From the IMG/VR virus record IMGVR_UViG_3300027779_000014: 64,000 nt of DNA; one strand, 5' to 3'. The notes beneath the pieces were generated by a model that was given only the letters and a program-made list of their open reading frames with translations, ran no database searches and had not been told where the DNA came from. This document shows, one piece after another, positions 46,370 to 63,601 of the stretch (the stretch's first letter is position 1; each line of letters starts with the position of its first letter). Source of the stretch: an uncultured virus (IMG/VR IMGVR_UViG_3300027779_000014) (taxonomy: Duplodnaviria; Heunggongvirae; Uroviricota; Caudoviricetes). A program made the translations under genes and the position numbers.

Positions 46370-47731
46370 TCACCTTCCGTTTTCTTCATTGTTGTCGAAA
46401 TCGGTTAGTACCATTTGCCCTTCTTCATGAACTACTCTTTGCCCTCTTAATCTTGCTTCAAACCTCTCTATGACCCGATTTGCTCGTAATTGTTGGGCTG
46501 CGAAGAACTCTTCTAGGTGCTGATTAAATCTTTCTTCGAAGGTATTGTGCATCCTCTCCACTAAATTAGTCATTTCTGATTCAATATTGCTTGCTATTCT
46601 TTCTGTGGCAGAAACTCCTTGTTCCTCTATAGTTTCAATTGATTCGTTTGCTACCTTGGCTGTGGATTCGGCCATTTCGGTCAATTTGGTGTGAATTGTG
46701 TCCATCACCATAACTGGATTTGCTTGCATTGCCGCTTGTTCAGGTGTTTTGGCATCTAGGTGTACGAAACCTGAACTTAACAGATCGTGTGAACCATCTG
46801 CAGTGATTGAGCCATCGGCATTCATTGGCATCATCCTTGTTTCGCCCGATTTTCTTCTTTCCTTGACTTGGCGTGCCAATTCAGGATTGAATATTAGCGT
46901 GCCTGCTTCATATTGTTGCGAGTTTCTTTGATTAGGGAGCCCTAGAGACCACCCGTATGTCTTTGAAAGTTCGGACATCACATGATATAGTGAGTCGGCT
47001 ATACTTTTGTTTATCTCTGCGCTATCCATAGCTTCTTCGGGAGTCACTATATGACGATTAGGTAGCGTTATTCTAACTGGATGAGGTAAGCACCAACTCC
47101 CATAAACTGCATCTCCCTCTTCATTATGGCTCATTCTCCTTCTAAAACGGATTCTCCAAGGCCCTATTGCCGATTCGATGTCCGGTGCAGCAAAATGAAT
47201 CCATCCTCTGATCTCTTTTCCATGAGGAATTACTCCTTCACGCTTCCATTGCTCAATCTCCCTATCCCATGGCATTCCGCCTCTTGGTCCGTCGGTATTG
47301 ACTGGTAAATTCCAGTCAAGTCTGTGTATATCGATGCGTGGTTCTACACCTCCTGGTAGCGGGCTCCAAACTGGAGTGTCACGATGTACCCCCATTTGGG
47401 ACTGCAACTTGTAGATGATTTTCTCCATTTCTTTAGATCGTGGGCCTGGCTTGTATGCTTTGAACCTCAAACTGACTGAACCTTCTCTTACTTGTTCCAT
47501 TTCCTTTTGATGCTCTATGAATGAGTCTGACTGAATGATGTACTGCTCTTTACACAGTCTCCTGACCCATCTACTGATTGTTGCCTTGTCTTTGCCTAAA
47601 ATCTCCGCTATTCTGTTAGCGATGTGCCTTTCGTTGATTAGAAGATGGTATATCGCCGCCTTCTTTTGTAAAGTGGTTTCCGAAAACCACTTAGTTGCAT
47701 CTATGGTTGCAGTGTTTTCAATCATGTGCAA
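46370..47731 (-). CDS. Winged-HTH protein with uncharacterised core and coiled-coil tail
   Basis: IANRIAEILGKDKATISRWVRRLCKEQYI is an HTH; AGGAGG SD upstream. Confidence 0.7.
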   Translation of the reverse strand: MHMIENTATIDATKWFSETTLQKKAAIYHLLINERHIANRIAEILGKDKATISRWVRRLCKEQYIIQSDSFIEHQKEMEQVREGSVSLRFKAYKPGPRSKEMEKIIYKLQSQMGVHRDTPVWSPLPGGVEPRIDIHRLDWNLPVNTDGPRGGMPWDREIEQWKREGVIPHGKEIRGWIHFAAPDIESAIGPWRIRFRRRMSHNEEGDAVYGSWCLPHPVRITLPNRHIVTPEEAMDSAEINKSIADSLYHVMSELSKTYGWSLGLPNQRNSQQYEAGTLIFNPELARQVKERRKSGETRMMPMNADGSITADGSHDLLSSGFVHLDAKTPEQAAMQANPVMVMDTIHTKLTEMAESTAKVANESIETIEEQGVSATERIASNIESEMTNLVERMHNTFEERFNQHLEEFFAAQQLRANRVIERFEARLRGQRVVHEEGQMVLTDFDNNEENGR

Positions 47732-48074
47732 CTTGGCCTCCTAGAAACTTTGTCCGTTGCCCGTTGGTTCATAATACTGTCTACCACTATGAGGGTGCTT
47801 ATGTCGATTATAACCTATGTAACCATACATGGATTGACCTTTTTTTAAGAGTTGTAATTATTGGTTTTTCTTTGATTAAATCTAAACTCACTCGATAAAC
47901 AAGGTACTGCAACCTTGTTGGGAAAAGTAACTTCGGAGAATAGAAATAGAATATGGTATGGTTGGTTGTGCCACTCATAGCATGGTTCAGTTAGAAGTGG
48001 CTTGAATATCTTTTGAAGCATGGAGTATTTTATCATCGGCATACTTCATACGACACTGCCTTCTCACATGGTTC

Positions 48075-48425
48075 GTGCTTAAAGCGGAACGAGTTGAACT
48101 AACAGATGGCTTTGTTTATCGAGATGTGTATGTCATACCTGGAGATATTTCTTTATGCATAGTAAGTGAAGGAGAAACTATAGATATTACCAGAGAAGCA
48201 GTAAAATTAGTAGCATATTCCGATCCCAAATCAGCATGGATGATTCGAACTTTAGCAATGGGCTTACTGTTAGATGTTTTTGAGGAAGTTCAAGAAACAC
48301 TAATGGATTTAGAAATGGTCGCAGAAGATGTACAAGACTATATTGACGAACTTCACAAAGCCGATCAAGCAGATTCTCCAGAAGCTCCTGAGACTAATTC
48401 CACTACTAAATCCCCATACGAGTGA
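48075..48425 (+). CDS. Hypothetical acidic protein
   Basis: First ORF of a + strand operon; degenerate class-B motif TCATACGACAC 18 nt upstream. Confidence 0.65.
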   Translation: MLKAERVELTDGFVYRDVYVIPGDISLCIVSEGETIDITREAVKLVAYSDPKSAWMIRTLAMGLLLDVFEEVQETLMDLEMVAEDVQDYIDELHKADQADSPEAPETNSTTKSPYE

Positions 48426-48745
48426 TATTTATGAAAGATTTTGATGTTATACCCTCTAATTTTGAGGCAAAATTGAAAGAGAAATGCTTTCAAGTAGTTT
48501 CTTTAATTGCCATGGTGGCAGAGCACCCCATGAATAATGCACACTATATTGCCGAAATTAAGAATATAGTAACTGATATTGAAGAAGATTTGGAAGAAGT
48601 TGGCCTTGAGGGAGATGGCAGAAGTGTCCCAGACACTCAACAATTAGATGTTGTTGACTTGCTTTTTTTGAAAGGCGCTGAGGGCTTGAAAAAATACTTT
48701 CAGCAAAAAGTAAGTTCTGGTGAAGAATATGATGATGATAACTAA
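48422..48745 (+). CDS. Hypothetical protein
   Basis: GTGA overlap with the previous gene. Confidence 0.65.
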   Translation: MIFMKDFDVIPSNFEAKLKEKCFQVVSLIAMVAEHPMNNAHYIAEIKNIVTDIEEDLEEVGLEGDGRSVPDTQQLDVVDLLFLKGAEGLKKYFQQKVSSGEEYDDDN

Positions 48746-48755
48746 AGGTGAAAAA

Positions 48756-50177
48756 ATGAGTGATGAACAACAACTAAAAGCAGAATTAGAGAGATATTTC
48801 ACAGCAGTGGTCGATGAACAGTACCTAGTACAGTACCCTGATATCGACAGCCCTGTTGGAACGCCTTTGTTTTATGATGAAAATAGACAGATAGATGCAG
48901 ATTACATTAGTGATATGACAGGCATGAGCAAAGGCGGCGTTTTGACTTCCTTTGAAGCGTGGCTATCAAATGGAGGAGTTATTCCCCATGAGCGACCTAT
49001 CGCTACTACTAGAAATAGTAGAGCCAGTCCAGCAAGCCCTCTTTCTAGGCCTGTATTGGGGCAAATAGATGTCCCTGAACGCCGCCAATCAGGTAGTTTT
49101 TTATCTGAGATAAAAGATGATATGAATGATGCTTTGGAAATGAGGAGATTGGAGAATCAATTCGACAGTATGAATCGGCCACAGCAAACATATGCTCCAC
49201 AAGGAGGATCTCAAAGTGAAATCACTGCTCTTATAGCAGCATTAGCCCCTTTACTGAAACAAGATAGGCCAAGCATAGATCCTATGACTATGACTCTAAT
49301 GAAACAATTGAATGATAGAACTACAGATTCAACTGCTCAAATGATTGCTTTGTTCAATATGAATCAAAACGCTAACCAGCAGTGGATGACTATGCTCATG
49401 GATCAGTCTAAAGGAGGCGGAGGTCGTTCTTCTTTGGAAGATCGTTTGCTGAATCACAGCCTGGACAAGATGCTTACTGGTTCTGATTCACCCGAAGACT
49501 CAATTTGGTCAGACCTTGTGAGAAGTGGACAATTAGGAGATATAGTTCAAGGAGCTGCTGCTGGGATTGCAGGCCTAGCAAACCGAAGATCGCCTATGGG
49601 AGACAATCCGTATGCAGGTGAAGCACAGCAAGTATTGGCAGAACCTCAACCATCACCTCAAGAATTAGTCCCTACATTCGAAGTTCCTGTTACTGAAAGT
49701 AGTTCTATGTCATATCAAGAGAAATGCACCCATATAATGAATGAGATGATGCCTACTTTACCTGCAGAATGGACAAGTGATGGGAATACTATGCAGATGT
49801 TAATGAATTCAGTAGAACTTTCTGTTAAAAGAGGAGAGGATACTTACCCAACAAGTACTGAAATGCAACTTGCGCTAGCAGCAAAAGAAATGCTGATAAT
49901 AGCAAATCTAAGGACGGTGGGGACTTCATTGAGTAAAATCGAAAAGGGGGAAATTGGGATTGACCTAGCGGCAACGATATTATCTCAGCATCCGCTGTGG
50001 CCTGTATTCCAGGGCGAAACTGTAGAATCGTTGTTAATGACCATTAACGCTTACTCTGTGGCCGATTTGCCAGACAGTCCGTCAATAGTGCATGACCTTG
50101 AATACCTAAATCGAGCGACCACAAGGCCGATAATAGAATCCCTACTGGATACAGCAAGAGGAGGTACAGGCGAATGA
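48756..50177 (+). CDS. Met/Gln-rich helical protein
   Basis: Start moved to ATG 48756, after an AAGGTGA SD. Confidence 0.75.
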   Translation: MSDEQQLKAELERYFTAVVDEQYLVQYPDIDSPVGTPLFYDENRQIDADYISDMTGMSKGGVLTSFEAWLSNGGVIPHERPIATTRNSRASPASPLSRPVLGQIDVPERRQSGSFLSEIKDDMNDALEMRRLENQFDSMNRPQQTYAPQGGSQSEITALIAALAPLLKQDRPSIDPMTMTLMKQLNDRTTDSTAQMIALFNMNQNANQQWMTMLMDQSKGGGGRSSLEDRLLNHSLDKMLTGSDSPEDSIWSDLVRSGQLGDIVQGAAAGIAGLANRRSPMGDNPYAGEAQQVLAEPQPSPQELVPTFEVPVTESSSMSYQEKCTHIMNEMMPTLPAEWTSDGNTMQMLMNSVELSVKRGEDTYPTSTEMQLALAAKEMLIIANLRTVGTSLSKIEKGEIGIDLAATILSQHPLWPVFQGETVESLLMTINAYSVADLPDSPSIVHDLEYLNRATTRPIIESLLDTARGGTGE

Positions 50178-50917
50178 GTATTGAATATTATAGTTATGAA
50201 TTAAAGAAGAGTAGATTAGGTGGATTCCTGGGGAACAAGGTAGCCGTTAGAGAGGACTGGATTAAGAGAACTAGGAGATATATTGTAAGTCAAGGGTTGG
50301 ATCTCAACAAGTTGGCTACATTCCTCAAGAAAGGCCTCTATGATCGTAGAATAGAGGGTTTCAATGAGCAGGCTTTGGGAGAACCCCTTAGTAAAGCACA
50401 ACAATGGACATTGATGTGGATTGTTCTGTCTGATTTTGGAGTTCCGGACTGGCTAAGAGATATTGAGAAGGATGAATATACTCCTGAGATGATAGTTGCA
50501 GAGCCAGAAGAAGAGGATGAGGCTGTAATCAAGACATTATTGGCTCCGGCGAGTGCTGTTGCAGCAGTATCGAGTTCTGTCGCAGGAGCGACTGTTAGTT
50601 CACTGGGTTCACTCGGTAGTTCGATGGCTAGAGGAACTGCTACTGTTGCTGGAAGTACTGCTAATGCTACTGTTGATGCAACAAAAGCAGTGGGTGTCGC
50701 TGCCTTGGGTGTTGCGGCTATACCAGTAAAAACTCTCACATCACTTGTTGGAGCAGCAAAAGGAGTAGAAGTAAAAGCAGAAGCGGCTATTGCAGAAGCA
50801 GAAGAGGCTATTGCTGCTGCTGATGCACCTACCGAATTACCTGAAGTAAAAGATTTGACCGAAGCTATGGCAGTTGAAGCACCAACTGATCCAGAGGTCG
50901 AGACAAGTGGGGAATAA
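50174..50917 (+). CDS. Hypothetical protein with Ala-rich amphipathic region
   Basis: ATGA overlap; GGAGGT SD. Confidence 0.7.
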   Translation: MSIEYYSYELKKSRLGGFLGNKVAVREDWIKRTRRYIVSQGLDLNKLATFLKKGLYDRRIEGFNEQALGEPLSKAQQWTLMWIVLSDFGVPDWLRDIEKDEYTPEMIVAEPEEEDEAVIKTLLAPASAVAAVSSSVAGATVSSLGSLGSSMARGTATVAGSTANATVDATKAVGVAALGVAAIPVKTLTSLVGAAKGVEVKAEAAIAEAEEAIAAADAPTELPEVKDLTEAMAVEAPTDPEVETSGE

Positions 50918-50919
50918 TC

Positions 50920-51543
50920 GTGGTCGTAGGGGCGGAAAGCCAAAGTTACGGCGAGTTAGAATTCGTAGAAAGCCCCGACGAACCGACTGAAAGAGAAAAA
51001 AACATTCGATTAAGATTAATCCTTGGAGCATTTACATTTCTTTTAATTGCAACATTACCACTAATCCAATATTATTATGCAGGTGCTTTTCTATATGTCT
51101 TGGCAGGTGGGATTGCTTTTACTATAGGTACTAACCTGACTATTGGGATATTATCTATCAGAATAGAGGACAAAGCGGAATTGATGGAGAGGAGGATGGC
51201 CGATTTACTGGAAGAGTTAAGCACCTCTACAGATTTATTAGGAGATTTCAATAATCAGTTGCAGCAGTTCCCATTAGAATCCATGCTTGAGACTATGGAA
51301 AAGGCTAGAGATGAGTTAGGACCGGCTTTATCTCAAATGAATGGAGTTAGTTGGACTGAAATCTCTACTGCTTTCGCTGCGGTTATGGAATGGTATGAAA
51401 CACTTGATACTGATAAGATAAAGTCGATGATTGCCCCTTTTGTAGTTGAGACACCTCAGATAACATTGATTGATGATCCCTTCAATGATTCGATACCAGC
51501 GCCGGATTTCTTCCCACCACCGCCACCTAGGCATCGAAATTAA
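50920..51543 (+). CDS. Membrane protein (2 TM plus coiled coil)
   Basis: LILGAFTFLLIATLPLI and AFLYVLAGGIAFTIG. Confidence 0.7.
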   Translation: MVVGAESQSYGELEFVESPDEPTEREKNIRLRLILGAFTFLLIATLPLIQYYYAGAFLYVLAGGIAFTIGTNLTIGILSIRIEDKAELMERRMADLLEELSTSTDLLGDFNNQLQQFPLESMLETMEKARDELGPALSQMNGVSWTEISTAFAAVMEWYETLDTDKIKSMIAPFVVETPQITLIDDPFNDSIPAPDFFPPPPPRHRN

Positions 51544-52028
51544 TCTTTGAATACGCTCGCTAGTAAAAATAGGCCTGCTGCATTTACTACTTTACCAAAC
51601 ATCTCATTTGATTGAGTTGAGTTCCAATTTCCAGATAGCGCATAATTAGCATAGTGCTCACAATTTCTTATTGCGGGGTTGTAATCATCACGATTCATAA
51701 ATTTCTTAGCTCTTTCTAAAACTGGTATGGGATTTTCTGGAACGGAGACGACTTCTATGCTCCTTCCTTCTGAAAATAGATCATAAGGCGTTAATCCTAT
51801 GTGTACTCCAGTGTATGAATTATCTTTTGTAGTGGGCCACAGTGCATTCACTATTTTTAATTTTTTATCTTCTAGTGAACTGCCCTCGTATGGACCACCG
51901 AATTGATAAATTAACTGTTTTTGACTTTCAGGGTGATAATATTCTGATGCTATTCCGTAATGATATAAATTCCAACCTATTTTTCTCCTTAATCCGGCTC
52001 CTATAGGGTAAGGCATGTCTTCTGACAT
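51540..52028 (-). CDS. LRAT-like permuted NlpC/P60 protein (acyltransferase/phospholipase/peptidase)
   Basis: N-terminal YHYGIA, C-terminal YNPAIRNCEHYANY, hydrophobic tail. Confidence 0.8.
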   Translation of the reverse strand: MSEDMPYPIGAGLRRKIGWNLYHYGIASEYYHPESQKQLIYQFGGPYEGSSLEDKKLKIVNALWPTTKDNSYTGVHIGLTPYDLFSEGRSIEVVSVPENPIPVLERAKKFMNRDDYNPAIRNCEHYANYALSGNWNSTQSNEMFGKVVNAAGLFLLASVFKD

Positions 52029-52071
52029 GGCCTTCGACTACCGCTAGGCCGGATATGTCTTTCGGATAAGG

Positions 52072-52082
52072 TCAAACGGCAA
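52072..52082 (+). promoter_or_regulatory. Class-B promoter motif TCAAACGGCAA
   Basis: 17 nt before ATG 52100. Confidence 0.75.
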
Positions 52083-52099
52083 TCACCACTCATAGCCTC

Positions 52100-52279
52100 A
52101 TGGAAGAGGCGAAAAGCGATGATGAACCTATTCTAACTCCAGTAGATACTTGCTACATCGTTATGCGAGATGTCCCTATTACCATCAAGGCGCAACTTGT
52201 AATCATCAAATATAAACGAGGTTGGAAGTCTTGGGCAGATATGGCTTATGATGTAGTCAAAGAGTTTGGTGAAGAATAA
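52100..52279 (+). CDS. 59-aa RHH-like protein (not in the ORF track)
   Basis: MEEAKSDDEPILTPVDTCYIVMRDVPITIKAQLVIIKYKRGWKSWADMAYDVVKEFGEE. Confidence 0.65.
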   Translation: MEEAKSDDEPILTPVDTCYIVMRDVPITIKAQLVIIKYKRGWKSWADMAYDVVKEFGEE

Positions 52280-52280
52280 G

Positions 52281-52697
52281 ATGCGTGATGACCACATAGA
52301 ACAGATTATTTCAGTAGTAAAAGGCACATTAGGCCATCCTTCCGAACAGCGAGAATTAGTCCTAAGAAAGAGATTGCTTGATTTGAAACTTAAATCTGGT
52401 CCAGAGGGCTATGTAAAAGAGAGAAGAGATCCTATTGCTTTGTGGATTGCCAACGCTAGAAAATGGGCTACAAATAAGTGTTTGATGGGGAACAAAGTTG
52501 ATATCGACATGGTTGTAAATTCTAATCCCCTACCTGATGGTGTAGATAGGCGAGCAATTGGTGGTGTTTTCAAGCATCCTACTTTCAAGAGAGTCGGAAC
52601 GGTGAGAACAAGGAAGGCATCAGGAGGATTTAGGACAAGTGGGCAATATATCTTATCTAGTCAAACTATAGTTCCAGATGCCATAACAGATTGGTGA
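52281..52697 (+). CDS. Basic putative DNA-binding protein
   Basis: PLPDGVDRRAIGGVFKHPTFKRVG resembles a small phage wHTH family; start moved to ATG 52281. Confidence 0.6.
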   Translation: MRDDHIEQIISVVKGTLGHPSEQRELVLRKRLLDLKLKSGPEGYVKERRDPIALWIANARKWATNKCLMGNKVDIDMVVNSNPLPDGVDRRAIGGVFKHPTFKRVGTVRTRKASGGFRTSGQYILSSQTIVPDAITDW

Positions 52698-52701
52698 AGG
52701 T

Positions 52702-52712
52702 TCAAACGGCAG
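52702..52712 (+). promoter_or_regulatory. Class-B promoter motif TCAAACGGCAG
   Basis: 17 nt before the in-frame ATG at 52730. Confidence 0.7.
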
Positions 52713-52729
52713 AAGCCACTCACAGCATT

Positions 52730-53419
52730 ATGACTGATGACTGGAGAAACAACTTCCTACCGCCTGAATCTATTGAGGTCGAAACTGCTCAGGCCGAGTT
52801 CGTACCTACTGAAGAACTTCAAGGCGATGCTTATGTAGCGCGTATTAGAGAAGAAGAATTGAATAATGTAGCAAGTGAAGACGATATTCTTGCTGAACTA
52901 GGCGCAGAAGATAGAGAGGAAGCTCTAGAACGAGTTGTTGCTAAACTGTTGGAAGAAGGTCCAGAGGCGCAACTAGCAGTTATAGGTCAGAATCAGCAAA
53001 GAATAATGGAGGCAATAGATAATATGGCTTCTGGATTTTCTAGTCAATTAGTTATATTGGCTAGAAGAATTGATAATTTTGAAAGAGTATTAGATCAGGC
53101 ACAGGGGCAACCTACAATGACAAATCTCATGTTCGACGCGCCAGAAGTATTCAACAAAGTAGTCAATAGAGATGTTGAAGAAAAACAAGACGAGCCTGTA
53201 GAATTAGAGAAAGCCATTGAGCCCGCTACTCCTGATCCCGATTTCTTTATACCTGACGAAATAGAAGGTATGCTCAATTTTGATGCAACATTCCCTGTCT
53301 CCATTGAAGTCCAGGCTGCGTTCTGGATGTGGAAGGAAAAACTATCTTCATTTCAAAATTTCGTCAAAGTGGCGGGTGGCCCAGTAGCGGCTAAAAAAGC
53401 AAGAGGCCATCTCGAATAG
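52730..53419 (+). CDS. Acidic hypothetical protein
   Basis: Start moved to ATG 52730 on motif spacing. Confidence 0.7.
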   Translation: MTDDWRNNFLPPESIEVETAQAEFVPTEELQGDAYVARIREEELNNVASEDDILAELGAEDREEALERVVAKLLEEGPEAQLAVIGQNQQRIMEAIDNMASGFSSQLVILARRIDNFERVLDQAQGQPTMTNLMFDAPEVFNKVVNRDVEEKQDEPVELEKAIEPATPDPDFFIPDEIEGMLNFDATFPVSIEVQAAFWMWKEKLSSFQNFVKVAGGPVAAKKARGHLE

Positions 53420-53457
53420 TCCGCATTGTCTAAACGACGAGCCCACATCTCACAGCC

Positions 53458-56115
53458 ATGAGCGACGACCTGGTGATGCACTGGCTCGGCGCTCTTCGTG
53501 AGATATCTAAAGATAGAGTTCCAGATATATACCTAGTCAATGTAGCCAAAAGATTAGGTGGAGTTCAGGGAAAGAAGCCTTTAGCACCTGACTATTATCG
53601 GGATATTGGAGAAATAGATGATAAAGTCCTAGAGAAGATCATTAAGGGATTAATGAAACAGAGACAGAAGGATGCCGTCATTCCAGGTGAGAGGGTCGGT
53701 GTTATCGCAGCACAATCATTAGGAGAGCCTGGTACGCAGATGACTCTACGAACATTCCACTATGCAGGGGTCGCATCAACGGTGAATCCCCTCGACAAGA
53801 TGATTGCCGATCAGTCAGGAGTAAGGACTGTCTATACAATGAGTCTTGGATTGGGAGAGGATTACCGTTGGGATAGAAGTCGTGCAGATAGCCTTCGACA
53901 TGGCCTTCTTAGGACTAAATTAGGAGATGTTTGCGATATTTACTTTGAAAATGATGATGTCCCTAAACAGACTTATGAGGAACTAATTAGAGTTTCAAAA
54001 AACGAAGGTTTAACGCGAGAGGCTTTGGAATTGCAGCAAGGTCGAATCATAGCAAATCTCCTAGATAGAACAACACAAAATAACATAATTATCACACCCA
54101 AAAAGGAACTTAAAGATGATGAGGAGGGTTATGATGAGAATTATGAATATATAGACATAGAAGACATTGTGGGAATTCTGCAAACTATGTTGAAAGTCAA
54201 TTGGAATGGAGAACGACGGAAAGATCCAGGTAAAAGTACACGCTTCGGCGAAGATGTCGTTGTCTATATGCCTGGATTAAGAGGCAACATTAGGATTGAG
54301 CGTTTTGACGATTCTGTAAGAGTCTCCGTTCCCCATTTCCCACCATCTTACAAACTGTCTTTGTATCATCTTCTGAAAAAGATTCAATTTTGTAACAGTT
54401 GTCACTCTGGCATACAATATATGAAGACAATGAGCCAAAGTGGTAAAGCGGTTTCACAGAAAGTAGTGGAAAAGGGGGAAGATAAAGATTATGTGAGCCT
54501 TATTAATCAATTTGTAGAAGCTGTCGAGGGAGGTCAAGGATTGAGTGATGAATGGAAGGGTGCGGTTTCATCTTCTGCAAGGGATGATGAGTTTGATTTT
54601 CAAGAAGAAGTATTCACTGAATTAGGAGGAGATCCTTCGTTTAATCCAGAAGAATGGATTGCAGTAATAAACGGAGATATTCCTAGTGGTTTGGAATATG
54701 GTAGTCCAGATCACATATTAGGCATTAGGAGGTTTTGGACTTTAACTCCTGCCAGTTATACTCTTGAATTGGCAGCAGGAGTCGATTTCAAATGCTGCCC
54801 TCTGTGTGGATTGGGCTGGGAGATTTCTTCTGCAAGTTTGAGACAAGTAGGGGAGTTTGATATCGATCATCTATTGCAACCCCAAATTACAAGTTCCGAG
54901 AAATCTGGCATGAAAGAAGGTTATAGAAATCTCTATTCTGAACTGGTTCGTGTTTCTGAATATCCGTTAGACGATAGGAATGTCGATGTCGCCAAACAAC
55001 CAACATGGGAGCCTTCTTCTCTTGGCAGCCCTGCAAAGAAGGTTGCAGAAAAATCTGTTACGATTCCAGGCAGCGTCTATGAAGGTGTTTATCCAGGAAG
55101 CGGTAGATTAGGTAGCCTTACTGATTACCCAGTACAGGCGATGTCTTCTGGTAGAGGAATAGGTGGTGGCGTAGAAAGTGAATGGTTCATCTATGTTGTA
55201 GGGGCAGATGTGAAGAACTTCTGTAACTCAGAATTAACTGGCCCACCAGCTAGAAGTAAATATAGAAATAAAATTAATGAAGGGAAAGGTTGGGAAGGCA
55301 TCCCCTGGACATCTAAGTTAAGAAGTTCTTTTGGTGGTTACTTCGCCGCTATTGACGGTGATGATAGGTTTGACTTCTTACGATCTACTTGTGATGATCC
55401 ACGACAAGTATTTCACGCCTTAGGCATTGAAGCTGCTAGAATGGTTATTTTGGAGAATATGTACCATATAATCACTAACGATGATGCTGATATTGCAGAG
55501 TATGGTATCGCTAGTGCTGGGATGGAAGTCCATAATGGTCATATGACTTTATTGGCAGATTCTCTTTGTAAAGATACCACTATAACAACGATTCTTAGTG
55601 CTTCTGCTATAATGGGTGGAAAGGGTGTTGTAGGGAAAAAGGGAACATATTCCCTTGAGATGCCTGATGGCAGTATAGAAAATTATGGCGATATACTTAC
55701 TATTGCTTCATATGAAACTGCAAATAGAGTTTTATTTGATGCAGTACCTATGGGAGTTATAGATCCATTAGGGACGGTAAAGGCGGAACAAATAACTGGA
55801 ATAATTAAGGGTACGGGGTATCAAGGTGTGCCGCATAGAATTAATGGAGATAAATTGAGCCTAGTTGATGATTTAATACACTTAAAAGATGTAGAATCGA
55901 AGGCTATGAGAAATCTTTCATCTTTTGCGATAGAGAAGTCTGGCATGAGTTATAATGATTTAATGGTTAGATTACCTTTAGATCGTACTAAAGTAACAAA
56001 GGATATTTTGGATGATTTATTCGCTATGGAAGAATTTAGAGCAGAAATAGAAATTGTGAAGACGACTAAGAAAGAAATCGAAGAGATTTCTATTACTCTA
56101 TCTCAAATGCCGTAG
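53458..56115 (+). CDS. rpoA2: Divergent, enlarged archaeal RNA polymerase subunit A'' (Rpo1C) homologue
   Basis: [30 protein letters not shown] (trigger loop), [32 protein letters not shown]; 885 aa. Confidence 0.9.
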
Positions 56116-56462
56116 ATTGCGCTATCTCGTAGCCTTTGAGCTAGAGTATCATTGTTTACCTCTGGCTTAGGTTCCTCAACTACTTCTTCGATTATTTCTT
56201 CCACTGCCATTTCTTCTTCTACTTTTTTTATGTAATCTAAGTCGTGTCCGTGGTTATTATCTATATTTTTAGTTGATTCTTCTAGAACTGTGAGTTCTTC
56301 GAGTTCTTTTTCGTCTCGTGGTGCTTCTTCTGTAGTTAGTGTAGTAGCATCATTCCCAATTAGGTACTTCCCTTCCTTGAATCTCTTCCATCTGTGAGAG
56401 ATTTCTTCATTAGTTAGGTTTGCGTGCTGGTGTTTGAATTGAGGCCATGTTATTTCAGTCAT
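56103..56462 (-). CDS. Small protein with basic N-terminal helical motif and acidic tail
   Basis: [24 protein letters not shown]. Confidence 0.65.
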
Positions 56463-56881
56463 ATTTTATACTTCCTTAGATCGTTTGACATGTCAGATAT
56501 TGTGATATTAGATTCATGGCGTAAAATTTGCGCTCTGTTTTCGTAGTATTCTATTTTATTGTTTACATCTTCTAGAATATGCATCATCTTATTGTGTGTA
56601 TTTTCCATATCCATAAACATATTTTCATCGATTGTATCTTCTGGATTATTTGGTTCGAAATCACCGATTGCATCATTTATAGATTTAGATAGATTGTTTA
56701 ATTCATCTAACTGCGAATCAGTAACACTCTTGTTACTTCTAATGCCTAAGGCAACGATGCCTTTTAGTGTGCCTTCTTCTACAATTCTTATCAATTCTTT
56801 GTATTCGGACCATGAATCGCTAGTTTGTTCTTTTGATAACCCTCTTTCAGTGCAAATTTTTCTCCAATCCTGCCATTTCAT
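56459..56881 (-). CDS. Small helical protein
   Basis: WQDWRKICTERGLSKEQTSDSWSEYK; class-B motif upstream. Confidence 0.65.
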   Translation of the reverse strand: MKWQDWRKICTERGLSKEQTSDSWSEYKELIRIVEEGTLKGIVALGIRSNKSVTDSQLDELNNLSKSINDAIGDFEPNNPEDTIDENMFMDMENTHNKMMHILEDVNNKIEYYENRAQILRHESNITISDMSNDLRKYKI

Positions 56882-56899
56882 ATTAATCCGTAGGGATAA

Positions 56900-56910
56900 T
56901 TGCCGTTTAA
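56900..56910 (-). promoter_or_regulatory. Class-B promoter motif TTAAACGGCAA
   Basis: 18 nt before ATG 56881. Confidence 0.7.
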
Positions 56911-57050
56911 CCTCTTGTACCTATTTTCCATTTAGAGTATATCCATTCCCTAGGAAGGTGTTTTCCGCAATTATCGCATCTGCAGGTTAAAGGATTCCAG
57001 AATTTAATGTCGCAATCCTCGCATTCAGCATATATAGGGAGTGTCGTCAT
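56907..57050 (-). CDS. 47-aa Zn-ribbon protein
   Basis: CEDC...CDNC; likely start ATG 57050 with TTTAT about 26 nt upstream. Confidence 0.6.
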   Translation of the reverse strand: MTTLPIYAECEDCDIKFWNPLTCRCDNCGKHLPREWIYSKWKIGTRG

Positions 57051-57245
57051 CAGGTGGGCGGAGAGGATTGGAGAAATAAACATGAACTGTGGAAACTGCC
57101 GAAACACAGATTGAGGAACTCAACGCCTCCCCACCCGTTTGTCGAAAGGCTACCTCTCATTTCAGTATTTCTGTGGACGAGGAGCTATGGTTGCAGCCTT
57201 GCCTGCCGCGCGGTCAGGCCCCCGTCCGATTTAGGATAGGACCAA

Positions 57246-57337
57246 TGCCGGTTAAGAGTTCGGGTTGGCAAAAAAATATTACCGACCCAGAGAGTTCGGG
57301 TCGGCAAAAGGGGGGAACCCACCTCATAGAGATGGGC
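57246..57337 (-). terminator. Tandem stem-loops with U-tract at the 3' end of the gene array
   Basis: Minus strand: GCCCATCTC-TAT-GAGGTGGGT, then TTGCCGACCC-N9-GGGTCGGTAA followed by TATTTTTTT. A 19-bp direct repeat lies at 57255-57273 and 57291-57309. Confidence 0.6.
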
Positions 57338-57649
57338 TTATCTTGCTTGGAGAGCATTCCTTATGGATTGATTGAGATTACTACCCTGGCCTTTCCCTTC
57401 TTTTGATAAGATAGGGTAAGCACCGTGGCTAGCATCAATGATTCTTGTTGCTCGTCCAGTGATCGTAGTATGGTAAATGCCATTTTTAATACTAAATGTA
57501 GCTATAAGGTAGGCATCTAATGATGATTGCCCCGCTTCTTTTAATTCATCTATCATTTCTTTTTCAATTTTGTTCCAAATCGTTGTTCCAGTAAATCCAC
57601 CAATTGGTGGCGCGTGGTTCGAAGACATGATTGCCCGATTGGGTATCAT
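57338..57649 (-). CDS. Hypothetical protein, last of the array
   Basis: Preceded by the variant motif ACTGACCATAT. Confidence 0.55.
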   Translation of the reverse strand: MIPNRAIMSSNHAPPIGGFTGTTIWNKIEKEMIDELKEAGQSSLDAYLIATFSIKNGIYHTTITGRATRIIDASHGAYPILSKEGKGQGSNLNQSIRNALQAR

Positions 57650-57668
57650 TCTTTAATATGGTCAGTAA

Positions 57669-57935
57669 TTACCACTCATAGGTTGCCCAATGAGGGTGTA
57701 TTTCCGCGTCTGCGTCGAAAAGAAGGAGTTTTGCCCCTTCATCGTATGCGGCTTTCATAATCGGCATCAGCCATTCAGGACAAGTTTCATCCCAATGTGC
57801 GCCGTTTGGTTCACTTATCCAAACTACAAATCCATATTCGAATGCACGAACTCTATAGTCTCCCCAATCTGGAGAGGTGTTCGGCATATGGCCTGTCGAT
57901 AGATCTAACATTTTATCAAATTCTATGTTTGTCAT
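57669..57935 (-). CDS. DUF5983-like protein
   Basis: LDLSTGHM...EYGFVVWI...PEWLMPIMKAA..GAKLLLFDADA...YEW. Confidence 0.7.
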   Translation of the reverse strand: MTNIEFDKMLDLSTGHMPNTSPDWGDYRVRAFEYGFVVWISEPNGAHWDETCPEWLMPIMKAAYDEGAKLLLFDADAEIHPHWATYEW

Positions 57936-57942
57936 GGTCAGT

Positions 57943-58218
57943 TTATAGATGGGTTTTGTCCCATGATATTTCAGTGATCCCTTCTGAAAGATTCCATTCT
58001 ACTAATCCATAAGATTCGCAATTTAGACATTCTATCATCACAGAGAAGCCGTTTTGATCGACTCTTCCTACGCCTTTTGGGTTGCTGGATATCCATTCTT
58101 CATGGGGGCAATGCTCTATTTCATTTATTTTTTCTGTTAGTTCTATAATTATATTTTTCATTCTTTGCAATCTATCAATGTGATTTTCACATAATGTTGC
58201 TGTTCTTAGTTTTGTCAT
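57943..58218 (-). CDS. Coiled-coil plus Zn-ribbon protein
   Basis: CPH...CLNC. Confidence 0.7.
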   Translation of the reverse strand: MTKLRTATLCENHIDRLQRMKNIIIELTEKINEIEHCPHEEWISSNPKGVGRVDQNGFSVMIECLNCESYGLVEWNLSEGITEISWDKTHL

Positions 58219-58226
58219 GGTCAGTA

Positions 58227-58721
58227 TTACTCATTCCAGTTAGATTTCTCTATGAATCCGTTTTCTTCTAGGTAATCGAGTCCGAATGAACCTAATAGTT
58301 CTTCTCTTAGTTCTTGCACCGACATTTCGAGGAATTCCCTTGTTGTCTTGTAGCCTAAATCGATTAGAGGTTCTCCGTTCTTCAATATACCTCCACGGTA
58401 TATGTTGTGGTATTGCTCCTCGACTGTAAAGAGGGGGTTTACTTCCCCTACATCAAGATCTTCATCAGTGATATTGAGTACAATATCTCCGTCTGGTTCT
58501 TCTCCTACTCTAAATTCTGTACCTAAGATGAAATTTTGCGTGTAGAAAATTCTTTCTTCGAATTCCTTTGTCCCTTCTGATGTGAGAACGATAAATCCGT
58601 CTTCCATCCCGAGTCCTAATCTCCACTCTAAACCTCCTAGATCGACATAACTCCTGTCAATCATTATTCTAACTCCTTCTGGTAGTTTTGCTGTAATATC
58701 TTTAGTTTCTTTTCTTGTCAT
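58227..58721 (-). CDS. Acidic hypothetical protein
   Basis: Motif-anchored start. Confidence 0.7.
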   Translation of the reverse strand: MTRKETKDITAKLPEGVRIMIDRSYVDLGGLEWRLGLGMEDGFIVLTSEGTKEFEERIFYTQNFILGTEFRVGEEPDGDIVLNITDEDLDVGEVNPLFTVEEQYHNIYRGGILKNGEPLIDLGYKTTREFLEMSVQELREELLGSFGLDYLEENGFIEKSNWNE

Positions 58722-58728
58722 GGTCAGT

Positions 58729-59031
58729 TTATCGCATCTCTGTAACCACGCCCTCGTAAATCGAGCCGCTTGGTTCCCAGTCCACTCTTTGTGGATTGTT
58801 TTCTGCTTGTTCTTCTGGTTCTACCCAAATATGAGAACTTAATTCGTTTCTTCCGTCGTAGGAAGCACTACAAAGTGCGTTGTATGCCTCATCATTCGCT
58901 TCTTCATCTCTGATCCCTGTTGCATAGGCTCTGCTAAGAGCCCTGAATAACAGGGCTTCAAGTTGTGATGGTTCGAAGCTAAAGCACTCCTTCATTTGTG
59001 CTTCTAAGATTTTATCTGATGTTTCTGTCAT
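58729..59031 (-). CDS. Acidic hypothetical protein
   Basis: Start moved to the motif ATG at 59031. Confidence 0.7.
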   Translation of the reverse strand: MTETSDKILEAQMKECFSFEPSQLEALLFRALSRAYATGIRDEEANDEAYNALCSASYDGRNELSSHIWVEPEEQAENNPQRVDWEPSGSIYEGVVTEMR

Positions 59032-59039
59032 GGTCAGTA

Positions 59040-59408
59040 TCACTCAGGCCATGGAATATCGGAGTAGTATTTGGAAAACACTTCAAAGATAGCATCGTTT
59101 TCCGCTTGTTGGTCGATGTCATTCGCGTCGTAATCCTCTATGTTTTCTTCAAGAAGCCTCGCCTTAACTTCTAAGATTTCATCCATGTGCTTATTCAACC
59201 TGTCTATTTCGGTTTCTTCGTAGCGTTCTGTATAATCGTGGATTTTCCAAGAACCAATCGTATTTCCGTTGATATCTTGTATGCTTCCACCGTCATTTCC
59301 GTTTGCGATAAGATCTACTATTTCTGCAAAGATTCTTTTTGTCTCTGGTAGCGGTGTTTCGTCGAACGCCGCATTATCTATGTCATATTCAATATGAATT
59401 TTTGTCAT
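59040..59408 (-). CDS. Conserved small viral early-region protein
   Basis: DNAAFD...IQDINGNTIGSW pattern, common in phage early regions. Confidence 0.7.
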   Translation of the reverse strand: MTKIHIEYDIDNAAFDETPLPETKRIFAEIVDLIANGNDGGSIQDINGNTIGSWKIHDYTERYEETEIDRLNKHMDEILEVKARLLEENIEDYDANDIDQQAENDAIFEVFSKYYSDIPWPE

Positions 59409-59418
59409 GGTCAGTATG

Positions 59419-59643
59419 TTATCCGTCTAGTTCTAGTAGGCAGTTTTCGTATTCTTTATCCCATACCTTTGTTGTCAAAGTACATTGAGAACCTTGTTCC
59501 AAATACCCTTCTTTTATTGCCCTTGCTAGGTCCCAAGGAATATTCTCTTTATCAATTGCTTCCAATGAGTTGGGGGCTTTGACTTTGGTTGATACTGTCA
59601 ATAAAATTGTTTTTGACACATAGTATTCATTTAATTTGGTCAT
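59419..59643 (-). CDS. Hypothetical protein
   Basis: Motif-anchored start; VKAPNSLEAI. Confidence 0.7.
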   Translation of the reverse strand: MTKLNEYYVSKTILLTVSTKVKAPNSLEAIDKENIPWDLARAIKEGYLEQGSQCTLTTKVWDKEYENCLLELDG

Positions 59644-59657
59644 GGTCAGTTGGTGGC

Positions 59658-61031
59658 CTAAGCCACCGTGATGTTCATTGCTTCCCTAGATGTTGGGAAC
59701 GCTTCGAGATTAACTCGGCCTTCCACTACATCCTTTAGAAGATGGTGAACATCATATAGCCTCTTGTCGAGAGATTTTAGATTGAGCGTTCGCCCCGCCA
59801 TTTTTCTCTCTCCTGAGCCATTATCTGTTTTTGGCCCTGCCCAAGCGGGCTTATGTGTAAAGCCGCCTGTCAGAACATTGTATGCATGGAAGGCGGTTCC
59901 TACCGCTTCTCCCTTGACTTTTACCCAATCTCTATCAGGATCTTTCCATCCGTCTTTAGAAACCAGGAACATGTGTCCTTGATGCATTTCGTAGTCAATG
60001 ATTTCCCCAGTTCTTTCGTTGAGAATTGGGTTAGCCTTCGGTAATGTCAATATCTTGCGCTGTTGAGCAGCAACAAGTAACTTATCGAAGATTTCGTCAG
60101 TCATTTCATAGTTTTGTAGAGACTCTACAAAGAGTAGTTCATTCTCTACATCAGTTATCATCTCGCCTATTTGAGAACCAAACTTATCCCAATCAATAGA
60201 TCCGATTGAGTTTTCGGTGTGTCTTAACGAAAATAGATGTCTTTTGCTGCTAGCAACCATTCCATTTAGGCATGCGACTCTCTGAGCGACTCCTACCATT
60301 CGTAGGCTGCCAGATCCGTCTAAGCTGTTGTGGATTGATATACCGTAGTTGTATAAATCTCCAGTTCTTAGGTCTGCGGCTTTCATAATCTTTGATCGTG
60401 ATTGTCCATCTGGTGTCATTGAGTAGTTGGTTCCGTTTCCGAAGCCACCACGATTTGTCACATCTATGTCCATTCTAGCCTTCTTTCCTTGGTCGTAGCA
60501 GGTAATTGCCCAACTCCAACCAGCCCTGTCGCAGTATCTTGCGATAGGAGCGTATAGATCTGTATAGGAAACCACCGCATATCTGTCACTCACCACTCCA
60601 AGTGGTGCGCCGATAGGTTGGTTCTCAGAGGATTGCTTCGGATTCAAGATCAGGATATGGTTAGGCCTTCCTTGAGTGTTTGTCGAAGTGTAAAATCCAC
60701 TTTCTATGTCATTCTCACGCTCTTTTCCGTCTGCGTAATTGTTGTTATCATATACACCTGCAGCAAGCAGGTCGTCTTTCAGTTCTCCTTCAAGATTGAT
60801 TTGTACGGGGAACGATAGCGGCTGGAAATTCCAGTCGCAGGTCGATGACCCTCTATTACCTCTCTTTAAGAAGGCAAAACCTTCTCCTTCTGATTCGGCC
60901 ATCGAATTAGCGATTGCCGTATGTCTGTCCCAATTTGGGATTTCATCATTTTCCGTCATAGTCTCGTTCCCTAGCAAGTTGCTAAGTTCGATAACTTCTA
61001 TATTGTCATCATTATTTGATGTATCTGTCAT
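59658..61031 (-). CDS. DUF932/DUF945-family protein
   Basis: LGVVSDRYAVV...IHNSLDGSGSLR...RVACLNGM...LRHT. Confidence 0.8.
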   Translation of the reverse strand: MTDTSNNDDNIEVIELSNLLGNETMTENDEIPNWDRHTAIANSMAESEGEGFAFLKRGNRGSSTCDWNFQPLSFPVQINLEGELKDDLLAAGVYDNNNYADGKERENDIESGFYTSTNTQGRPNHILILNPKQSSENQPIGAPLGVVSDRYAVVSYTDLYAPIARYCDRAGWSWAITCYDQGKKARMDIDVTNRGGFGNGTNYSMTPDGQSRSKIMKAADLRTGDLYNYGISIHNSLDGSGSLRMVGVAQRVACLNGMVASSKRHLFSLRHTENSIGSIDWDKFGSQIGEMITDVENELLFVESLQNYEMTDEIFDKLLVAAQQRKILTLPKANPILNERTGEIIDYEMHQGHMFLVSKDGWKDPDRDWVKVKGEAVGTAFHAYNVLTGGFTHKPAWAGPKTDNGSGERKMAGRTLNLKSLDKRLYDVHHLLKDVVEGRVNLEAFPTSREAMNITVA

Positions 61032-61037
61032 GGTCAG

Positions 61038-61259
61038 TTAGTCTCCTATGTATTTTGAAATAGGAATTAGGTCTTCTATATCGCATATTCGACCTGCCAT
61101 CGCTTCTTCTAAATAACTTGCAATTGACTTCATTGTTGCAAGTCTTGGTCCAAAATCAACATATTGTTGAAGACTTGCCAATACTTCATTGTATATTGTT
61201 TCTTTATCTTCTTTCGCCATTTGACTTATGTAAGTCGTTTTTTCATATTTCATGGTCAT
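61038..61259 (-). CDS. Hypothetical protein
   Basis: Start moved to the motif ATG at 61259. Confidence 0.7.
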   Translation of the reverse strand: MTMKYEKTTYISQMAKEDKETIYNEVLASLQQYVDFGPRLATMKSIASYLEEAMAGRICDIEDLIPISKYIGD

Positions 61260-61401
61260 GGTCAGTATCACTCCTCTTCTTTTTTTAGGTCTTTTACTAT
61301 ATTCTCAATCAATTTTTTTAGTGCTTCTTCGTATGTCATTTTCATTTGTATTCCTCGGACATCTTAGATTGAAATAGATTGTTAATAAATATATGGTCAG
61401 T

Positions 61402-61902
61402 TTATGCTAGGATTAATTTCATAGCATATCCATCATCGCACATAGCATAGTTCTCCACTATGTAGGAGAAGTCGTTTTGTAGCGTAAATGAGCCTGTTGT
61501 CCCTCTACCGATGTAGAGGTTTACTTGCTCACAACCTACAATTACTTCTTCTGGTTCGTACATGACTAATTGTCTTTGTTGAGAACCTCTCCATGGAACT
61601 TTGAGCCCTTTGACTCCATCCATCTGTGCTAATTCACCTGCTAGAATCCATCTCCTTAGCGGTGTGCCGCAGAGTATATCAGAACCCTGGTGGGCCCTGC
61701 AGGCTTGTGCTATCCTGTTGAGTGTCTCAACGGGAATTCTGTCGAAATTTCTGACAAAGACATCGACTTGCTTTACTTCTTGGTTTTTTCTTGTAAAGTA
61801 AGTATTGGCTATTCTTACACTTACCTTAGCGTCTGGCGCTATGGAAAGAATCGCTGCTTTCAACATCTTTGATATTTCGGTTGTTTCTAAATATCTTGTC
61901 AT
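61402..61902 (-). CDS. Protein with LPD29-like N-terminus
   Basis: YLETTEISKMLKAAILSIAPDAKVSVR; start moved to the motif ATG at 61902. Confidence 0.6.
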   Translation of the reverse strand: MTRYLETTEISKMLKAAILSIAPDAKVSVRIANTYFTRKNQEVKQVDVFVRNFDRIPVETLNRIAQACRAHQGSDILCGTPLRRWILAGELAQMDGVKGLKVPWRGSQQRQLVMYEPEEVIVGCEQVNLYIGRGTTGSFTLQNDFSYIVENYAMCDDGYAMKLILA

Positions 61903-61904
61903 GG

Positions 61905-62165
61905 TCAGTCTATGATTTCTATGTGATTCCCCAAATGAGGGTAATACATTCTTCCCGCTATTTCTTCCCTTTCTGGGATTGCGTATTCTGCTTCTAAGTG
62001 TATGTGGTCGCATTCAGAGCCGCAAAATTTGGTAGGCGCTATTTTCTTAACCACTCCAACTATGAAGGAATCAAACTTCCCAATCCGTCCGAAATCAAAT
62101 GATTTTATTCTATCTCCGACTTTTAACTCGGATCTATTTTTCTCTGCTATCTCTGTTTCAGTCAT
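61905..62165 (-). CDS. Small SH3-like protein
   Basis: LKVGDRIKSFDF...FIVGVVKKI; start at ACC-ATG-AC 62165 (partial motif). Confidence 0.65.
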   Translation of the reverse strand: MTETEIAEKNRSELKVGDRIKSFDFGRIGKFDSFIVGVVKKIAPTKFCGSECDHIHLEAEYAIPEREEIAGRMYYPHLGNHIEIID

Positions 62166-62175
62166 GGTTTTGTCA

Positions 62176-62340
62176 TTATACAATATAATGTTCACCTTCG
62201 ATGTATATGGTCTTAACTCTACCATCTTCGTGCATCTTCAAGTAACATGCCTTACACAAATCACCAAACTCTGGTAGTGCATAGAAGTAAGGTTTTCCAC
62301 ATTGATATTGTTCACATATTCTCTCTCTAGTTTCTGTCAT
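62176..62340 (-). CDS. 54-aa Zn-finger protein (not in the ORF track)
   Basis: MTETRERICEQYQCGKPYFYALPEFGDLCKACYLKMHEDGRVKTIYIEGEHYIV; motif-anchored start. Confidence 0.75.
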   Translation of the reverse strand: MTETRERICEQYQCGKPYFYALPEFGDLCKACYLKMHEDGRVKTIYIEGEHYIV

Positions 62341-62349
62341 GGTCAGTTT

Positions 62350-62628
62350 TTAGTACAATATCTCTTGTCTAGTTATTCCAACTGAATCACAGTGTTTGTG
62401 AAACTCTAACTCAATATTATTCAAATATTTTAATTTAGATTTTATTTGACTGTAAGATAACTCGCCGTCACACGCAAGATTTTCTGGTGAAAGTCTGCTT
62501 CCTAAATGATTGGCGATGTCCTTTGCCGTATTTTCATTAAGAGGGATCGTAATGTCGGTCCCTCCTGTTATGTTATTCCATCTGTTTATATCTTGGATGA
62601 AATTTCTTAAATTTTCTATTTTTGTCAT
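62350..62628 (-). CDS. Conserved viral hypothetical protein (LSPENLxCDGE family)
   Basis: RLSPENLACDGELS. Confidence 0.7.
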   Translation of the reverse strand: MTKIENLRNFIQDINRWNNITGGTDITIPLNENTAKDIANHLGSRLSPENLACDGELSYSQIKSKLKYLNNIELEFHKHCDSVGITRQEILY

Positions 62629-62639
62629 GGTCAGTCCTC

Positions 62640-62954
62640 CTAATCGGAGAGTTTGCTTTCATAGAAGAGCGAATCCCATAACTCGCGGGGTTCCCCTAGT
62701 TCTTCCCTAGCATGGAATGTCATGGTATCGTGATCCAGCATTTCATCAAGAAGGCAAATTAACCCATGCAAAGCCTCTAATTTATCTAAAAACAAAGGTG
62801 CGTCTGCCATAAGTTGCCTATCTGTGTCACTAGCAGGTGTATCATCGTCCAGATAGATTGCTTTCAATCCATCGGCCCAAACTATTTCTTGCCATTTGCT
62901 AGTAGGTGTGCGTCCGAGGTATCGTGCCTCGTCAATTTTTCTATGTTCTGTCAT
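62640..62954 (-). CDS. Phage-type hypothetical protein
   Basis: RTPTSKW...DRQLMADAPLFL resembles the HTPGPW...ARLIAAAP family; start moved to 62954. Confidence 0.65.
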   Translation of the reverse strand: MTEHRKIDEARYLGRTPTSKWQEIVWADGLKAIYLDDDTPASDTDRQLMADAPLFLDKLEALHGLICLLDEMLDHDTMTFHAREELGEPRELWDSLFYESKLSD

Positions 62955-62978
62955 GGTCAGTGGCAATTCTAGTTGCAT

Positions 62979-63176
62979 TTAATCTTGTTCTGGGCCTTCT
63001 AATTGGAAGGCTGCGAATGCTTTCTGCATCATTTCTAGCAGTTTTGATGTTCCTGCTTGGACTAGATAAGCGCCGTTTTGATTCCATTGTTCCCACATTT
63101 GTTCATCTATGTAAAATTTTATTTCTTTTCCATTGGACATATGTATTGTCCCTTTGATTTTTTCTATATCTGTCAT
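62979..63176 (-). CDS. Hypothetical protein
   Basis: Motif-anchored start. Confidence 0.7.
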   Translation of the reverse strand: MTDIEKIKGTIHMSNGKEIKFYIDEQMWEQWNQNGAYLVQAGTSKLLEMMQKAFAAFQLEGPEQD

Positions 63177-63185
63177 GGTCAGTAG

Positions 63186-63599: not shown

Positions 63600-63601
63600 G
63601 G

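Follow-up and report, generated by a model that had tools for sequence, protein, structure and literature searches.

The window, a stretch of 64,000 nucleotides classed as an uncultured virus (IMG/VR record IMGVR_UViG_3300027779_000014), contains on its plus strand an open reading frame (53458-56115) for an 885-residue protein that resembles Rpo1C, the A'' subunit of archaeal RNA polymerase (RNAP). This identification, first proposed in an earlier note on the DNA, is confirmed by matches to PF04998 (Rpb1 domain 5; Pfam, E 9e-23) and TIGR02389 (A''; E 1e-27, with 96.9 bits lying below the equivalog cut-off of 420.65 bits), and the closest PDB sequences are archaeal Rpo1C chains (E 2e-16). The protein was compared with 16 near relatives (full length, 48-74% identity) and 10 distant full-length sequences, fragments and one identical copy being left out, which gives a family of 27 full-length members of 818-967 residues. 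Identity within this family falls as low as 23%, and its members form a single clade both in an 85-row quick tree (SH-aLRT 96) and in a 52-row careful tree (100/98). By these similarities, which are far above chance, the protein is a member of a conserved Rpo1C (A'') family. Its features are as follows:

53458-56115, plus strand: Rpo1C (A'')-like gene, 885 residues (PF04998, TIGR02389, PDB matches, family)
53458-53682, plus strand: N-terminal helices, residues 1-75, predicted to touch the host A' C-terminus (model, co-fold)
53722-53769, plus strand: trigger-loop N-helix, a 16-residue segment, residues 89-104 (family alignment)
53770-53811, plus strand: shortened trigger-loop tip and C-helix, a 14-residue segment (PDB and family alignments)
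53953-55179, plus strand: expanded jaw, residues 166-574 (profile alignment, length comparison; Atlas look-alikes as a lead only)
54391-54807, plus strand: acidic insert, net charge -13, with CxxC 312/315 and CxxC 447/450 closing it (CxxC conservation)
55366-55827, plus strand: conserved C-terminal core, residues 637-790, with DFLRST, LGIEAAR, H695, D701 and E753 (hhalign)
55828-56112, plus strand: family-specific C-terminal helical extension (predicted model, length comparison)

The trigger-loop N-helix, the cleft core and the overall fold are common to this protein and to cellular archaeal Rpo1C (TIGR02389; 4ayb_C, 7ok0_C, 8cro_C). The Rpo1C core is formed by residues 1-165 and 637-790, and the C-terminal conserved blocks noticed earlier are retained as the cleft core (LGIEAAR, H..L.D, A.E), which hhalign aligns to Poseidoniales A'' at 99.9%. 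In contrast to cellular Rpo1C, the window A'' has a Cys4 jaw insert and a C-terminal extension, lacks the GLPR segment described below, and sits outside the rpoH-B-A'-A'' operon, not being encoded behind rpoH-B-A'. It is also about double the cellular size, in line with the earlier description of a subunit more than twice the normal length. The distance from the trigger-loop His to LGIE is 554 residues, relative to a cellular median of 191 (174-214, n=107), and the jaw is thereby larger by about 360 residues around the conserved Cys4 site; from LGIE to the C-terminus there are 231 residues, relative to 110-112 in four Poseidoniales-type proteins, an excess of about 120. The insertion of roughly 250 residues originally placed at about 54390-55140 is thus real but was underestimated, as that interval (residues about 311-561) spans only the zinc insert and a second insert. 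Since EWFIYVVG at residue 575 aligns with the cellular jaw strand EYYLSTIG, the inserts lie within the jaw. The CNSC and CCPLC motifs pointed out before are located at residues 312-315 and 446-450. Exactly two CxxC pairs are present in 27/27 family members, and a jaw CxxC occurs in 0/107 cellular sequences; the pairs are proposed to form a putative four-cysteine zinc clasp. By eye, the CxxC...CxxC block appears to lie in the linker behind the long jaw helix. The Atlas look-alikes of residues 305-575 are Rpb1 domain 5/7 clusters at 0.86, which is taken as a lead only, and longer fused forms of the insert region were found in 0/5068 candidates, which is weak evidence. IDGDD at residues 632-636 was considered as a catalytic motif and rejected, as its counterpart in the alignment is a cellular jaw-end motif and distant members do not retain it.

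The trigger loop combines strict conservation with remodelling. As reported earlier, the segment is intact: the motif EPxTQxTxRTFHxAG is present at residues 89-104, Q94, R98 and F100-G104 are invariant in the family, and Q...R[TS]FHYAG is retained in 27/27 members. By motif, the invariant Q, R and H would correspond to the nucleotide-interacting region of Pol II. Their retention in all 27 sequences, despite the low identity within the family, supports an active enzyme formed with host subunits. Immediately downstream, the 17 near sequences have a His-to-Pro distance of 10, versus 14 in 115/117 cellular sequences, and the trigger-loop C-helix motif G[LIVF]PR, 13-14 residues after the His, is found in 0/27 family members versus 117/117 cellular archaeal sequences; the replacement of this usual segment had also been recognized correctly. 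The QMT pocket motif, present in 117/117 cellular sequences, is lost in the 10 distant members, which counts against an active hybrid, as it could mean impaired catalysis. These losses would suit a poison subunit that assembles with host A' into a dead or stalled enzyme and shuts off host transcription late in infection. We regard this explanation as quite unlikely: invariant Q, R and H residues would be superfluous in a poison, and in yeast Pol II pocket changes at M1079, G1097 and L1101 and the E1103G substitution mostly raise activity (PMC5127505), so the loss of GLPR need not inactivate a hybrid RNAP. As between redirection of promoters and shut-off of the host, the retained catalytic residues would favour an active enzyme. 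An NP dipeptide in the trigger loop was rejected as a cleavage seam; distant members have S, D or A in place of N, and a helix cap fits the site.

A comparison of the window A'' with that of one relative, G001, gives pN values of 0.20 for the trigger-loop region, 0.24 for the C-terminal core, 0.44 for the zinc insert and 0.52 for the C-terminal extension. The dN/dS check proposed in the earlier note thus points to purifying selection for this one pair, in which pS is saturated (0.75-0.85 for the first three regions, 0.64-0.85 with the extension included). To the extent that it can be modelled, the fold agrees. The predicted structure from a 50-row alignment (pLDDT 64.6; an earlier AlphaFold model from 17 rows, pLDDT 42, was set aside) superposes on Sulfolobus Rpo1C (4ayb_C, Z 12.2, rmsd 3.1, 274 aligned) and is poor across much of the insert, where 266 residues fall below pLDDT 50. 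When residues 1-800 were modelled together with a Poseidoniales A' fragment (862-1035), the co-fold reached 0.64 versus 0.00 for the best of 3 controls, a mark reached by 116/157 solved pairs and 2/215 mismatched pairs; at least 83% of contacts are common to the runs, and the partner pLDDT is at least 73. The predicted contacts involve A'' residues 22-117 and 692-775. A docking of the kind anticipated earlier is thus predicted for the A' C-terminus, and the inserts make no contacts in it. Because like complexes have already been solved, the result shows likeness of the docking surfaces rather than binding by this copy; the score may reflect likeness to solved RNAPs, and the docking surfaces still look right. 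Judged from alignment, the A'-binding surfaces and the substrate-contacting trigger-loop residues are kept and the tip is remodelled. These data also bear on the idea that the protein acts outside RNA polymerase as a repurposed scaffold, with another role exerted through its inserts. Over half of the protein is new sequence, and one closed relative, G002, has no Rpo5; conservation nevertheless peaks at the trigger loop and the A'-binding core, and the A' co-fold exceeds its controls (like complexes being solved), which makes this idea highly improbable.

A scan of viral contigs for close relatives was negative, but G001 (128,784 bp) and G002 (127,570 bp), both IMG/VR records that have direct terminal repeats, carry the A'' gene and are syntenic with the window, with A'' at the same place in these closed, 128-kb genomes. 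One 27.7-kb contig, whose run may be the source of the window, covers 44898-63900, and the identical protein is encoded on contigs of up to 118 kb. The shared position in two closed relatives and this contig exclude a chimeric host fragment, which had been raised as a concern. A' and B were found in none of the six frames of the window, and neither L30e nor NusA turned up when 40 of its 112 ORFs of at least 80 residues were scanned, as had been stated for the neighbourhood of the gene. In the two closed relatives, the A' catalytic family and the Rpo2 families were each found in 0/2 (controls 14/14), with Pfam scans that took in 148/155 called ORFs of G001 and 149/177 of G002. Rpo2 was not found in six records, three of them closed. 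Custom A' and B profiles returned nothing under E 0.9 in six frames, DxDGD (the NADFDGD aspartates) occurs in no frame of the window or the two closed relatives, and 55 large ORFs reached at most 2.8% hhalign probability against A' or B, versus 99.5% for an A'' control. Rpo6, Rpo3/11, Rpo10 and Rpo7 were found in 0/6 records and TBP in 0/5. A full RNAP gene set was thus not found in the window or its two closed relatives, and this absence of a fallback polymerase also argues against a poison subunit. The term stand-alone used in the earlier note holds for the catalytic subunits, but not beyond them: the proposed search for further RNAP, TBP and TFB genes yielded, in the closed relatives, an Rpo5 in G001 (the partner of A''; E 2e-8, from a family of 14) and a divergent TFB-like protein in both, with weak matches (E 1e-4 to 1e-3). 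Rpo5 is present in 4/5 elements examined (G001, G003, G005 and G006). A Poseidoniales-like insertion in the viral Rpo5 was considered and rejected, as other archaea scored higher against the viral profile.

A search with a 197-residue candidate capsid protein of the element reached four further elements, G003-G006, that carry an A''-like stretch within ORFs of about 1,610-1,670 residues. The three of these ORFs that were read are fused Rpo1 (1608-1664 residues) with NAD[YF]DGD. Host-like TFB is present in G004 and G006, and G003, which is closed at 140,336 bp, has PolB, MCM, primase, thermosome and resolvase but no Rpo2. Philosof et al. 2017 (PMC5434244) described magrovirus group D as having a 'DNA-dependent RNA polymerase A' but lacking a structural block, and Xu et al. 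2023 (PMC10160649) subsequently raised the possibility that it is plasmid-like; the G003-type elements fit this group. G003 and G001 have candidate capsid genes, an ATPase, a thermosome and a resolvase in common, and both lack Rpo2. A thermosome is encoded in the window, and both a thermosome and a resolvase in G001 and G002, as in magrovirus group D. The lineages differ in that the group D-type has a fused Rpo1 with catalytic aspartates and no jaw insert, plus PolB, whereas the window lineage has A'' only and PolB was absent from the 148 G001 and 149 G002 ORFs scanned. The sister elements would achieve the same exchange with a fused Rpo1, and the split archaeal largest subunit can therefore no longer be held to be a precondition, as had been supposed. 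An autonomous enzyme, with A' and Rpo2 diverged past detection or supplied by a co-infecting element, is very unlikely. Most G001 and G002 ORFs have no family match and the A'' family sits on long branches, which would leave room for such genes; against this stand the missing DxDGD and the blank A'/B profile searches, made with a profile that does detect the strongly diverged Rpo1 of group D (E 1e-104 to 1e-119), and the group D elements are likewise without Rpo2.

The A'' gene is preceded by a short motif, AAACGRC, that recurs before other genes of the element:

53432-53438, plus strand: AAACGAC, 26 nt before the A'' ATG and also before the G001 orthologue; candidate element-specific promoter box
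52704-52710, plus strand: AAACGGC, 26 nt before the ATG at 52730
52074-52080, plus strand: AAACGGC, 26 nt before the ATG at 52100
56902-56908, minus strand: AAACGGC, 27 nt before the gene at 56459-56881 and also before a similarly placed G001 gene
15117-15123, minus strand: AAACGGC, 26 nt before the thermosome ATG and also before the G002 thermosome

Five of the 15 AAACGRC sites in the window have an ORF-opening ATG 24-31 nt downstream (background 3%), all at 26-27 nt, and AAACGRC followed by ATG gives 7 matches versus a shuffled mean of 1.39 (0/100 shuffles as high). This spacing is that of an archaeal TATA box ahead of a leaderless message. In three host-type genomes no positional excess is seen (40 versus 34 at a shifted distance). 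The motif is thus a candidate element-specific, non-TATA promoter box, although raw counts are weak in G001 (5 versus 3) and G002 (4 versus 3). Because the A'' gene itself carries AAACGRC, it must be transcribed before any hybrid enzyme exists, which counts against the hybrid reading. The same spacing suggests that the gene annotated at 52691-53419 probably starts at ATG 52730 rather than TTG 52691. In one metatranscriptome, contigs, which are blind to strand and level, fall in 25/30 bins of 44001-63900, with none over 53961-55952. The box and the TFB-like gene would be left unexplained if A'' were an immunity subunit, in which case the hybrid would keep host promoter rules and escape a jaw- or funnel-binding inhibitor, either a TFS4-like defence of the host or a shut-off factor that the element itself makes; only polymerases with the viral subunit would then keep working. 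The changed parts (jaw inserts, a tip shorter by four residues, and a viral Rpo5) are those expected of such a subunit, but no inhibitor was identified in the elements, and we consider this explanation unlikely.

The sequencing runs that best cover the stretch are marine or seawater, and the thermosome is a pointer to the host:

13595-15097, minus strand: thermosome subunit, pointing to the host and possibly helping A'' to fold (Pfam/TIGR matches, Thermoplasmatota comparison)

When the thermosome was compared with those of 121 Thermoplasmatota genomes, the 13 best matches included 10 from genomes whose A'' bears the Poseidoniales-type trigger-loop signature, the other three being uninspected. 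The comparison covered a single phylum, and the margin is small (278-263 bits, the best other genome reaching 263). The thermosomes of published magroviruses also group with MG-II (PMC5434244, PMC5332604). Together, these comparisons make Poseidoniales the likely host of the element. The phylogeny of A'', suggested earlier as a way to the host, did not serve this purpose, and assignment of a donor or host from it was rejected: in the 85-row tree the family shares an open group with Poseidoniales and group D, but it falls in a basal polytomy outside Thermoplasmatota in the 52-row tree, from which 33 rows had been left out, among them those of group D, those of NCLDV and eukaryotes, and the three longest branches of the family. 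The AU test for the family with Poseidoniales gives p 0.244, which neither establishes nor rejects that grouping.

The description of the element as a virus is based on its IMG/VR classing and on gene content, although a capsid fold search returned no match. The most conserved genes are the candidate capsid genes:

6523-9488, minus strand: genes for 259- and 197-residue proteins, 93% and 95% identical in G001, candidate capsid (synteny)

These two proteins have no PHROGs or PDB match; 67-86% of their Atlas neighbours are labelled viral, and an ATPase of the element matches a packaging family (E 1e-11). Regions 4562-9488 and 12797-13558 encode conserved proteins of 197, 259 and 455 residues, the last two alignable, and a P-loop ATPase, and are a candidate morphogenetic block common to the group D-type G003, where none was reported. 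A conserved protein at 45561-46373 (minus strand; 79% identical in G001), whose G003 homologue weakly matches a transglutaminase-like fold, is a candidate maturation protease. Giant modular proteins at 15132-20045, 27345-31388 and 31375-33858 (minus strand) are punctuated by [KR]xNP. This motif occurs 79 times in 66,283 residues of the structural blocks of four genomes versus 18 times in 71,582 residues outside them, and 114 times in 543,447 residues of cellular ORFs; in the giant proteins it is a candidate cleavage seam. It is absent from the window A'', but lies between the two CxxC pairs in 9/10 distant A'' sequences (P0019, P0177, P0178, P0180-P0183, P0186 and P0200), and the G002 A'' (8480-11011) is the only strict match outside the structural blocks of the four genomes. 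In the distant branch, the motif may indicate packaging or cutting of A''; as a possible cut site resembling polyprotein seams, it is also the one further observation that would suit a poison subunit.

In Methanococcus, the Rpo1'1''-5-6 module is loaded after the Rpo3/11/10/12-Rpo2 platform, and Hsp60 co-elutes with RNAP assembly intermediates (Li et al., PMC13556214). The RNAP genes of the element are parts of this late-joining module, and, by gene content, the A''-only branch and the fused-Rpo1 branch both carry just parts of it. We consider it probable, if by no means assured, that the viral A'' enters the host RNAP at this late Rpo1-Rpo5 assembly step and gives an active hybrid enzyme. The element would make a replacement A'' subunit, in at least some members with its own Rpo5, from an AAACGRC-type promoter; the subunit, perhaps folded with the aid of the element's thermosome, would pair with host A' when the Rpo1'/1''-5-6 module is added late to the Rpo3/10/11/12-Rpo2 platform of the host, and the exchange would result in an active hybrid RNA polymerase. 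In this hybrid, the new jaw would face downstream DNA and the docking site of TFS-family factors, and the enzyme would therefore probably differ from host RNAP in factor binding. Together with the divergent TFB, it would probably favour the element's non-TATA promoters, although no direct role of the jaw in promoter choice is known, and the missing GLPR pocket residues may raise its speed at the cost of accuracy. The subunit exchange of the earlier note is accordingly kept in modified form: no other catalytic subunit was found, the A' co-fold is favourable and the region is not chimeric, but the stand-alone and split-gene parts of that proposal are revised. Further observations that count against the exchange are that G002 is without Rpo5, that the TFB-like matches are weak and that the AAACGRC raw counts are weak in G001 and G002. 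A broader proposal, that marine archaeal viruses rebuild host RNAP with a swapped A'' (or Rpo1), Rpo5 and TFB, that the hybrid reads AAACGRC, and that the distant-branch A'' is perhaps packaged or cut with the zinc clasp joining its halves, is possible but rather doubtful.

Phage sigma or accessory factors such as T4 gp55/gp33 and SPO1 gp28 redirect the host core enzyme to phage promoters; these are exchanges of dissociable initiation factors, and, to our knowledge, none replaces part of the catalytic centre. A virus that brings half of the active centre would stand between those with a whole polymerase of their own and those that add factors to the host's. The archaeal inhibitors ATV RIP and TFS4 act on host RNAP during infection, TFS4 targeting the jaw and trigger loop (PMC8448823); they are add-on inhibitors, whereas the A'' of the element is a core subunit. 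The closest functional analogue, by analogy and not by membership, is plant Pol V: in Pol IV and Pol V the largest subunit is a variant whose trigger loop is altered, the small subunits are shared, and Pol V has a dedicated Rpb5 paralogue (PMC10533338). The plant enzymes are, however, cellular, have their own second subunit and have lost substrate-binding trigger-loop residues, whereas the A'' of the element keeps these residues and its gene is on a mobile element. According to one review, RNA polymerase genes are absent from archaeal viruses, which rely wholly on the host enzyme (PMC5569661), and neither an A''-only viral subunit nor subunit exchange was found described in the literature searched, although supplementary tables (e.g. 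Philosof's Table S1) may list such genes. If true, the proposed exchange would provide a natural chimeric RNAP with a re-engineered trigger loop, together with 27 sequence variants of a motif invariant in 117/117 cellular sequences, and would account for the orphan 'RNA polymerase A' seen in the group D elements of archaea that abound in the ocean. It is open to test in existing recombinant archaeal RNAP systems.

Several other features of these genomes were observed. A conserved orphan of about 147 residues, winged-helix-like by eye and with no family match, is convergent on the TFB-like gene in G001 (117063-117503) and G002 (59296-59745). G001 has PCNA (73737-74525) and RusA (66802-67296), and, unlike in G003, no DNA polymerase or helicase was recognized in its 148 scanned ORFs. 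In the window, a 1274-residue protein with an ATP-dependent DNA ligase domain is encoded at 20027-23851 (minus strand), and tandem repeats at 1-4200, which are read as a repetitive shadow ORF (1695-2753), probably belong to a fibre-like gene on the minus strand. Finally, ACTGACC-ATG heads 14 small genes at 57933-63606, all on one strand (minus), much of which is covered by RNA contigs; this sequence is present in 61 copies in G001, and a variant, ACCGCTC-ATG, occurs 87 times in G002.
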